Of a DNA stretch of 64,000 bases, positions 54,401 through 57,028 are shown one piece after another; position 1 is the stretch's first letter; each line of letters starts with the position of its first letter. The notes under the pieces are model-generated. The model did not search any database. It saw only the letters and a program-made list of their open reading frames with translations, and was not told the DNA's origin. The translations under genes and the position numbers were made by a program. Source of the stretch: Escherichia coli (GTDB lineage Bacteria; Pseudomonadota; Gammaproteobacteria; Enterobacterales; Enterobacteriaceae); assembly GCF_003334785.1 (NCBI RefSeq), contig NZ_QOWV01000002.1; one strand, 5' to 3'.

Positions 54401-57028
54401 ATGAGCGACCTTGCGAGAGAAATTACACCGGTCAACATTGAGGAAGAGCTGAAGAGCTCCTATCTGGATTATGCGATGTCGGTCATTGTTGGCCGTGCGC
54501 TGCCAGATGTCCGAGATGGCCTGAAGCCGGTACACCGTCGCGTACTTTACGCCATGAACGTACTAGGCAATGACTGGAACAAAGCCTATAAAAAATCTGC
54601 CCGTGTCGTTGGTGACGTAATCGGTAAATACCATCCCCATGGTGACTCGGCGGTCTATGACACGATCGTCCGCATGGCGCAGCCATTCTCGCTGCGTTAT
54701 ATGCTGGTAGACGGTCAGGGTAACTTCGGTTCTATCGACGGCGACTCTGCGGCGGCAATGCGTTATACGGAAATCCGTCTGGCGAAAATTGCCCATGAAC
54801 TGATGGCCGATCTCGAAAAAGAGACGGTCGATTTCGTTGATAACTATGACGGCACGGAAAAAATTCCGGACGTCATGCCAACCAAAATTCCTAACCTGCT
54901 GGTGAACGGTTCTTCCGGTATCGCCGTAGGTATGGCAACCAACATCCCGCCGCACAACCTGACGGAAGTCATCAACGGTTGTCTGGCGTATATTGATGAT
55001 GAAGACATCAGCATTGAAGGGCTGATGGAACACATCCCGGGGCCGGACTTCCCGACGGCGGCAATCATTAACGGTCGTCGCGGTATTGAAGAAGCTTACC
55101 GTACCGGTCGCGGCAAGGTGTATATCCGCGCTCGCGCAGAAGTGGAAGTTGACGCCAAAACCGGTCGTGAAACCATTATCGTCCACGAAATTCCGTATCA
55201 GGTAAACAAAGCGCGCCTGATCGAGAAGATTGCGGAACTGGTAAAAGAAAAACGCGTGGAAGGCATCAGCGCGCTGCGTGACGAGTCTGACAAAGACGGT
55301 ATGCGCATCGTGATTGAAGTGAAACGCGATGCGGTCGGTGAAGTTGTGCTCAACAACCTCTACTCCCAGACCCAGTTGCAGGTTTCTTTCGGTATCAACA
55401 TGGTGGCATTGCACCATGGTCAGCCGAAGATCATGAACCTGAAAGACATCATCGCGGCGTTTGTTCGTCACCGCCGTGAAGTGGTGACCCGTCGTACTAT
55501 TTTCGAACTGCGTAAAGCTCGCGATCGTGCTCATATCCTTGAAGCATTAGCCGTGGCGCTGGCGAACATCGACCCGATCATCGAACTGATCCGTCATGCG
55601 CCGACGCCTGCAGAAGCGAAAACTGCGCTGGTTGCTAATCCGTGGCAGCTGGGCAACGTTGCCGCGATGCTCGAACGTGCTGGCGACGATGCTGCGCGTC
55701 CGGAATGGCTGGAGCCAGAGTTCGGCGTGCGTGATGGTCTGTACTACCTGACCGAACAGCAAGCTCAGGCGATTCTGGATCTGCGTTTGCAGAAACTGAC
55801 CGGTCTTGAGCACGAAAAACTGCTCGACGAATACAAAGAGCTGCTGGATCAGATCGCGGAACTGTTGCGTATTCTTGGTAGCGCCGATCGTCTGATGGAA
55901 GTGATCCGTGAAGAGCTGGAGCTGGTTCGTGAACAGTTCGGTGACAAACGTCGTACTGAAATCACCGCCAACAGCGCAGACATCAACCTGGAAGATCTGA
56001 TCACCCAGGAAGATGTGGTCGTGACGCTCTCTCACCAGGGCTACGTTAAGTATCAGCCGCTTTCTGAATACGAAGCGCAGCGTCGTGGCGGGAAAGGTAA
56101 ATCTGCCGCACGTATTAAAGAAGAAGACTTTATCGACCGACTGCTGGTGGCGAACACTCACGACCATATTCTGTGCTTCTCCAGCCGTGGTCGCGTCTAT
56201 TCGATGAAAGTTTATCAGTTGCCGGAAGCCACTCGTGGCGCGCGCGGTCGTCCGATCGTCAACCTGCTGCCGCTGGAGCAGGACGAACGTATCACTGCGA
56301 TCCTGCCAGTGACCGAGTTTGAAGAAGGCGTGAAAGTCTTCATGGCGACCGCTAACGGTACCGTGAAGAAAACTGTCCTCACCGAGTTCAACCGTCTGCG
56401 TACCGCCGGTAAAGTGGCGATCAAACTGGTTGACGGCGATGAGCTGATCGGCGTTGACCTGACCAGCGGCGAAGACGAAGTAATGCTGTTCTCCGCTGAA
56501 GGTAAAGTGGTGCGCTTTAAAGAGTCTTCTGTCCGTGCGATGGGCTGCAACACCACCGGTGTTCGCGGTATTCGCTTAGGTGAAGGCGATAAAGTCGTCT
56601 CTCTGATCGTGCCTCGTGGCGATGGCGCAATCCTCACCGCAACGCAAAACGGTTACGGTAAACGTACCGCAGTGGCGGAATACCCAACCAAGTCGCGTGC
56701 GACGAAAGGGGTTATCTCCATCAAGGTTACCGAACGTAACGGTTTAGTTGTTGGCGCGGTACAGGTAGATGACTGCGACCAGATCATGATGATCACCGAT
56801 GCCGGTACGCTGGTACGTACTCGCGTTTCGGAAATCAGCATCGTGGGCCGTAACACCCAGGGCGTGATCCTCATCCGTACTGCGGAAGATGAAAACGTAG
56901 TGGGTCTGCAACGTGTTGCTGAACCGGTTGACGAGGAAGATCTGGATACCATCGACGGCAGTGCCGCGGAAGGGGACGATGAAATCGCTCCGGAAGTGGA
57001 CGTTGACGACGAGCCAGAAGAAGAATAA
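54401..57028 (+). CDS. gyrA: DNA gyrase subunit A
   Basis: 875-aa [53 protein letters not shown]...; active-site and QRDR regions recognisable; acidic C-terminal tail. Confidence 0.97.

Follow-up and report, generated by a model that had tools for sequence, protein, structure and literature searches.

Wild-type quinolone-resistance-determining region of gyrA in a 64-kb stretch of Escherichia coli DNA close to, and distinct from, K-12

The gyrA gene in the 64,000-nt stretch of Escherichia coli DNA analysed here (the window, always taken at its full length) was found to carry serine (TCG) at codon 83 and aspartic acid (GAC) at codon 87, and all known resistance positions of the gene are wild type because the whole gene is nucleotide-identical to that of K-12 MG1655. 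It is almost certainly the normal chromosomal gyrA, with the ancestral quinolone-sensitive allele, of a natural E. coli of phylogroup-A type, near K-12 yet distinct from it. The call on codons 83 and 87 is a deterministic genotype read-out with no statistical pattern, for which chance is not the relevant test; it concerns an already known, textbook wild-type allele and is routine genotype annotation.

The gyrA gene and its quinolone-resistance-determining region

The features of the gyrA region are given below by position in the window, with the basis of each assignment in brackets.

53532..54254, minus strand: ubiG, divergent from gyrA (MG1655 annotation mapped through the alignment; ORF list)
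54401..57028, plus strand: gyrA CDS (DNA gyrase subunit A), 875 codons plus stop (ORF translation, MG1655 identity, HMM and PDB alignment)
54599..54718, plus strand: codons 67-106 (Ala67 to Gln106), the quinolone-resistance-determining region (QRDR), all wild type (codon table)
54647..54649, plus strand: codon 83, TCG, Ser, wild type (codon count from the ATG at 54401; one transition, TCG to TTG, gives S83L)
54659..54661, plus strand: codon 87, GAC, Asp, wild type (codon count from the ATG at 54401; GAC to AAC gives D87N, the gyrA96 allele)
54764..54766, plus strand: codon 122, TAT, catalytic tyrosine of the DNA breakage-reunion site (context AMRYTEI)
56078..56098, plus strand: GyrA box QRRGGKG, residues 560-566, in the C-terminal DNA-wrapping domain (motif in the translation)
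57048..57065, plus strand: terminator-like hairpin, 20 nt past the gyrA stop (consensus scan, pattern match only)

The ATG of gyrA was read directly at 54401-54403. The nucleotide identity to MG1655 gyrA was 100.0% over 2628 nt (identity was also found to gyrA of many other E. coli), and the MG1655 annotation (CDS 2336793..2339420) has the same start and length as the ORF of the window. In the base-by-base alignment, zero differences from MG1655 were found from 52537 to 60411, a range that covers gyrA, the upstream spacer, ubiG and yfaA. At the protein level, residues 1-875 aligned to residues 1-875 of the solved E. coli chain 6rks_A (PDB), and 875/875 residues were the same as in MG1655 GyrA (b2231, NP_416734.1), including the QRDR, Tyr122 and the GyrA box; WP_001281242.1, the RefSeq protein for MG1655 GyrA, is annotated in the isolate JKHS016 (see below) too. 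The sequence-only reading, which was made before these comparisons, had taken the start at 54401 as canonical and had proposed an alignment to reference GyrA as a check; the start was upheld by the MG1655 CDS and by the full-length alignment to 6rks_A, and the check gave no difference (100% over 2628 nt). That a misplaced start codon shifted the numbering, so that the codons called 83 and 87 are the wrong ones, has a negligible probability, for the start and length match the curated MG1655 CDS, residues 1-875 pair with residues 1-875 of the solved chains, the local protein motif around codons 83-87 is as in the reference, and the S83L, D87N, S83V and D87Y changes of other genomes map exactly to both codons; the match to the reference gene and to the solved structures rules out a shift of start codon or frame.

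The second quinolone target, ParC (topoisomerase IV subunit A), has an N-terminal breakage-reunion domain homologous to that of GyrA, with Ser80 and Glu84 at the equivalent positions, and ParC models gave partial matches to the window protein. The scores were 580.3 with parC_Gneg TIGR01062 (below the cutoff of 628.9) and 694.1 with the parC_Gpos model (below the cutoff of 813.25), and those with the NCBIfam gyrA equivalogs were 1310 bits with TIGR01063 (above the cutoff of 877) and 1258.6 with NF004043 (above the cutoff of 902). Judged by these models and by its GyrA box, the protein is GyrA and not its paralogue ParC; the parC gene itself is absent from the 64-kb window. The catalytic role of Tyr122 of GyrA is established, and the GyrA box is known to set gyrase apart from topoisomerase IV. 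Given its 100% identity to the characterised E. coli protein, the product would be expected to have supercoiling activity with GyrB.

The QRDR was defined as Ala67-Gln106 (bioRxiv 10.1101/372086). In the codon table, all 40 of the 40 QRDR codons, and also positions 51, 119 and 196, encode the K-12 residues, and the codons between Ser83 and Asp87 (codons 84-86) are GCG GTC TAT (Ala-Val-Tyr). The 120-nt stretch of the QRDR was the same in the top-ranked genomes, with 100% identity in 7 of 60 sampled rows. The coordinates, codons and residues of the sequence-only reading, which had called Ser83 TCG and Asp87 GAC as quinolone-susceptible alleles, were exact on direct reading. The resistant alleles S83L, S83L+D87N and gyrA96 (D87N) are forms of the same gene with C to T at 54648 and/or G to A at 54659, and the window has neither change; single changes from GAC give Asn, Tyr, Gly, His, Val or Ala.

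The residues Ser83 and Asp87 lie in the GyrA breakage-reunion domain, where the C3/C4 keto-acid of a quinolone would chelate Mg2+ and two of the waters of this ion would hydrogen-bond to Ser83/Asp87 (the water-metal ion bridge). That these two residues anchor the bridge in E. coli gyrase has been shown experimentally, and the substitutions found most often in resistance are S83L and D87N/Y (PMC9917921). With Ser83 and Asp87 both unaltered, quinolones should dock in the gyrase-DNA cleavage complex and trap it, and a gyrase of this sequence would, from the literature, be a fully sensitive drug target. The usual first step to resistance is S83L, which raises the ciprofloxacin MIC by a median of 24-fold, and in the triple mutant with ParC S80I this MIC is raised about 1500-2000-fold (bioRxiv 10.1101/372086).

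The intergenic region between ubiG and gyrA (146 nt), which holds the gyrA promoter, was identical to that of MG1655, and a scan for the sigma-70 consensus did not pick up the gyrA promoter in this spacer. The count of terminator-like hairpins in the gyrA region was no higher than in shuffled sequence. The antisense ORFs over gyrA (e.g., 54563..55534, minus strand, 323 aa) were rejected as mechanical artefacts, since they lie inside a fully conserved, well-characterised gene. An Rfam scan of the whole 64-kb window gave nothing near gyrA; its single match was naRNA4, a REP-element-derived nucleoid-associated RNA (RF02564; 46544-46614, plus strand; 76.4 bits vs a gathering score of 59.5). Repeats of ~82 nt related to the naRNA4 match were seen at 46494-46662 and 53426-53508.

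Comparison of the window with MG1655 and with natural isolates

The window aligned to MG1655 as one colinear block (the reverse complement of 2329821..2393831, 99.96% identical) with 13 SNPs and three indels over 64 kb. In this single-block alignment, no DNA inserted relative to K-12 was found in the 64-kb window, and therefore there is no acquired resistance gene in it. All three indels are deletions: elaD has lost 1 bp from a T8 run, arnB 9 bp in frame and yfaV 1 bp. In elaD (minus strand, 10378-10385; deubiquitinase-like protease), the T8 of MG1655 is T7 here with a frameshift, and the lesion could be genuine, making elaD a pseudogene, or a homopolymer error of long-read sequencing; judged by gapless 25000-nt matches, T7 is apparently common to several other natural isolates. 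In arnB (minus strand, 27474/27475), whose product is the UDP-Ara4N aminotransferase of the arn operon for polymyxin resistance, the imperfect tandem AATGGCGCG/AATGGCGTC has lost a copy, with the result that the gene is three codons shorter. In yfaV (plus strand, ~34448), the MFS transporter gene of the rhamnonate cluster, the change relative to MG1655 is from TTCCTGCC to TTCTGCC, again with a frameshift. The reading frame of yfaS (plus strand, 59419-64000; alpha-2-macroglobulin family) runs on without a stop as far as the window reaches: positions 63520-63522 read TGG (Trp), and the TGA of the K-12 pseudogene (codon 1368 of the annotated frame) is absent, which makes this TGG a handy marker of a non-K-12 strain.

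Relatives were searched for with two 25-kb queries (window 27400-52399 and 1-25000) against 5426 complete RefSeq E. coli genomes. The best match to 27400-52399 was JKHS016 (NZ_CP147059.1), which alone among the best 40 matches listed has the arnB 9-bp deletion and has it together with the yfaV deletion. The best matches to 1-25000 came from poultry, cattle, swine, marine sediment, wastewater and humans; a dog isolate was also among the top matches of the 25-kb searches. MG1655 was not among the best 40 listed for 27400-52399, nor among the best 8 listed for 1-25000. Since natural isolates outrank MG1655 in these searches, most of the differences of the window from MG1655 would be natural-isolate alleles. 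None of the 5426 complete genomes matched perfectly; even the best were 2-3 SNPs per 25 kb off.

Over the 64 kb, JKHS016 differed from the window by 7 SNPs and 0 indels and was the closest complete genome overall among the matches listed. Its gyrA is identical to that of the window, and the 1-bp deletions of elaD and yfaV and the 9-bp deletion of arnB are common to both; in the JKHS016 annotation, elaD and yfaV are given as 'frameshifted' and yfaS as intact. Of the 7 SNPs, five are found in JKHS016 alone; the other two, at 10106 (elaD) and 52488 (yfaL), are private to the window, which differs there from both MG1655 and JKHS016 and therefore comes from a sister strain and not from JKHS016 itself. 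JKHS016 is an ST43 isolate from hospital wastewater in Japan with blaCTX-M-15, and its 100-kb IncI1 plasmid bears qnrS1; the QRDR of the isolate is given as 'SDSE (0)', its nalidixic acid MIC as <=16 mg/L and its ciprofloxacin MIC as 0.25 mg/L (PMC11832570 Table S1). By proximity to JKHS016 alone, the window may be placed in ST43/phylogroup A. As judged from the alignments, its source is a natural E. coli near JKHS016 rather than a strain derived from K-12.

Fluoroquinolone selection and susceptibility

The sequence-only reading had also taken the wild-type codons to suggest a strain not selected by fluoroquinolones. The part of this that stands is that no target-site selection is visible; against the rest, JKHS016 has a wild-type QRDR and yet carries qnrS1, with a ciprofloxacin MIC of 0.25 mg/L, and a strain without fluoroquinolone selection is only weakly suggested by the window. 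The wild-type call means that there is no gyrase-A target mutation, and no more. As the case of JKHS016 illustrates (qnrS1 and a raised ciprofloxacin MIC), a wild-type QRDR by itself does not predict susceptibility. The analysis covered one 64-kb window, and parC, parE, gyrB, the efflux regulators and plasmid genes lie outside it; since these loci, and transferable genes at large, contribute to the MIC as well, the allele speaks for the drug target and not for the susceptibility of the organism.

A strain with this wild-type GyrA may still be less susceptible to fluoroquinolones because of determinants that the window does not cover, for which qnr, aac(6')-Ib-cr, oqxAB, qepA, or changes in marR/acrR, parC or gyrB are the candidates; the wild-type call would then imply neither susceptibility nor a lack of past selection. 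The closest complete genome among the matches listed, JKHS016, has exactly this combination of a wild-type QRDR and qnrS1 (PMC11832570 Table S1), and the isolates of that study with transferable determinants and without QRDR mutations were all non-wild type to ciprofloxacin by ECOFF (PMC11832570). The ciprofloxacin ECOFF is 0.06 mg/L. Non-target mechanisms raise the MIC up to 250-fold without gyrA/parC mutations, and carriage of qnrB/qnrS was negatively correlated with gyrA/parC mutations in a systematic review (bioRxiv 10.1101/372086). On the other hand, 7 SNPs set the window apart from JKHS016, and a plasmid does not share the descent of the chromosome; JKHS016 had been chosen for sequencing on account of such a gene (a selection bias), and the window contains no acquired DNA. 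Transferable quinolone-resistance genes are absent from most E. coli whose QRDR is wild type. Taken with the evidence on both sides, reduced susceptibility by this route is unlikely, though with an appreciable chance.

A more specific and rather doubtful form of the same idea is that the window comes from an ST43-like multidrug-resistant lineage, as JKHS016 does, in which a plasmid qnr would shield gyrase and relax the selection for QRDR mutations. If this were true, the wild-type gyrA would mark a plasmid-protection route to reduced quinolone susceptibility and not a lack of drug exposure, and the 3-codon deletion of arnB and the frameshifts of elaD and yfaV would serve as markers of that clone.

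Frequency of the wild-type QRDR and the question of a laboratory origin

How informative a wild-type QRDR is was gauged from the allele frequencies in the 5426 complete genomes. Alleles were counted as exact matches to a 33-mer (window 54638-54670) with a 28-base seed, in which the central 23 bases (54643-54665, codons 83-87) must match exactly. The K-12-type 33-mer alone accounted for 1042 of the 5426 genomes, the cause being synonymous variation, and 11 genomes sampled across the identity range gave three synonymous backgrounds for a recount; in this sampling, GTT85/CGT91/TAC100 was the dominant haplotype and GCA84 was an O157-type variant. The recount on the three backgrounds classified 94.7% of the 5426 genomes, as follows.

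Wild type: 639 + 2014 + 297, at least 2950 genomes (54.4% of 5426)
S83L only: 72 + 413 = 485 genomes (8.9% of 5426; two main synonymous backgrounds)
S83L + D87N: 331 + 1371 = 1702 genomes (31.4% of 5426; two main synonymous backgrounds)
Unclassified: 289 genomes (5.3% of 5426; including D87N alone, S83V/D87Y and rarer synonymous backgrounds)

Complete RefSeq genomes are enriched for clinical and resistant isolates; despite that enrichment, the wild-type core of codons 83-87 is the majority state in complete E. coli genomes. The exact gyrA sequence of the window was also found in goose, pig, dog, cucumber and human isolates and in K-12, and the TTG allele at codon 83 was present in other sampled genomes. 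Two observations were made in passing. E. coli AH25 (chicken, NZ_CP055256.1) has an unusual QRDR with S83V (TCG to GTG, two changes), D87Y and V103I, and in 1 of the 5426 genomes a gyrA copy with the S83L+D87N core lay on a plasmid-typed record, probably through wrong assignment of the replicon or as a chromid-like artefact of assembly.

The wild-type QRDR had further been read, from the sequence alone, as a sign of a laboratory strain, and this claim did not hold. An origin from an E. coli K-12 laboratory strain, whose wild-type QRDR would reflect that origin, agrees with the nucleotide identity of gyrA, its promoter region, ubiG and yfaA to MG1655 and with the colinearity of the whole window (99.96% identical), but a K-12 lineage would be recognised by near-identity to MG1655, by the TGA lesion of yfaS and by K-12 derivatives as the closest genomes. 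What was found instead was 13 SNPs and 3 indels in 64 kb, TGG in place of the TGA specific to K-12 yfaS, and natural isolates as the top-ranked 25-kb matches, with neither MG1655 among the matches listed nor K-12 derivatives as the closest of them; the closest genome among the matches listed was the hospital-wastewater isolate, which has all three indels. Typical K-12 sublines are at most a few SNPs per genome apart, and 13 per 64 kb is far above this. The identical gyrA of animal, food and human isolates speaks against the same origin, as does the allele of popular laboratory strains, which are actually D87N: DH5alpha gyrA has AAC at codon 87, and gyrA96 (GAC to AAC) is carried by DH1, JM109 and XL1-Blue (PMC11148124). 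We regard a K-12 origin of the window as very unlikely, and by the full-window alignment to MG1655 and the TGG of yfaS it is largely refuted. The laboratory-strain claim is countered also by the wild type in at least 54% of the 5426 genomes and by the D87N of DH5alpha, JM109 and XL1-Blue: since the wild type is the majority and gyrA96 is found in cloning strains, a wild-type QRDR neither indicates nor typifies a laboratory strain.

The wild-type QRDR is the ancestral and majority state, and it gives no basis for inferring laboratory provenance. What a wild-type GyrA QRDR does exclude is the standard chromosomal route to high-level fluoroquinolone/nalidixic-acid resistance in E. coli.
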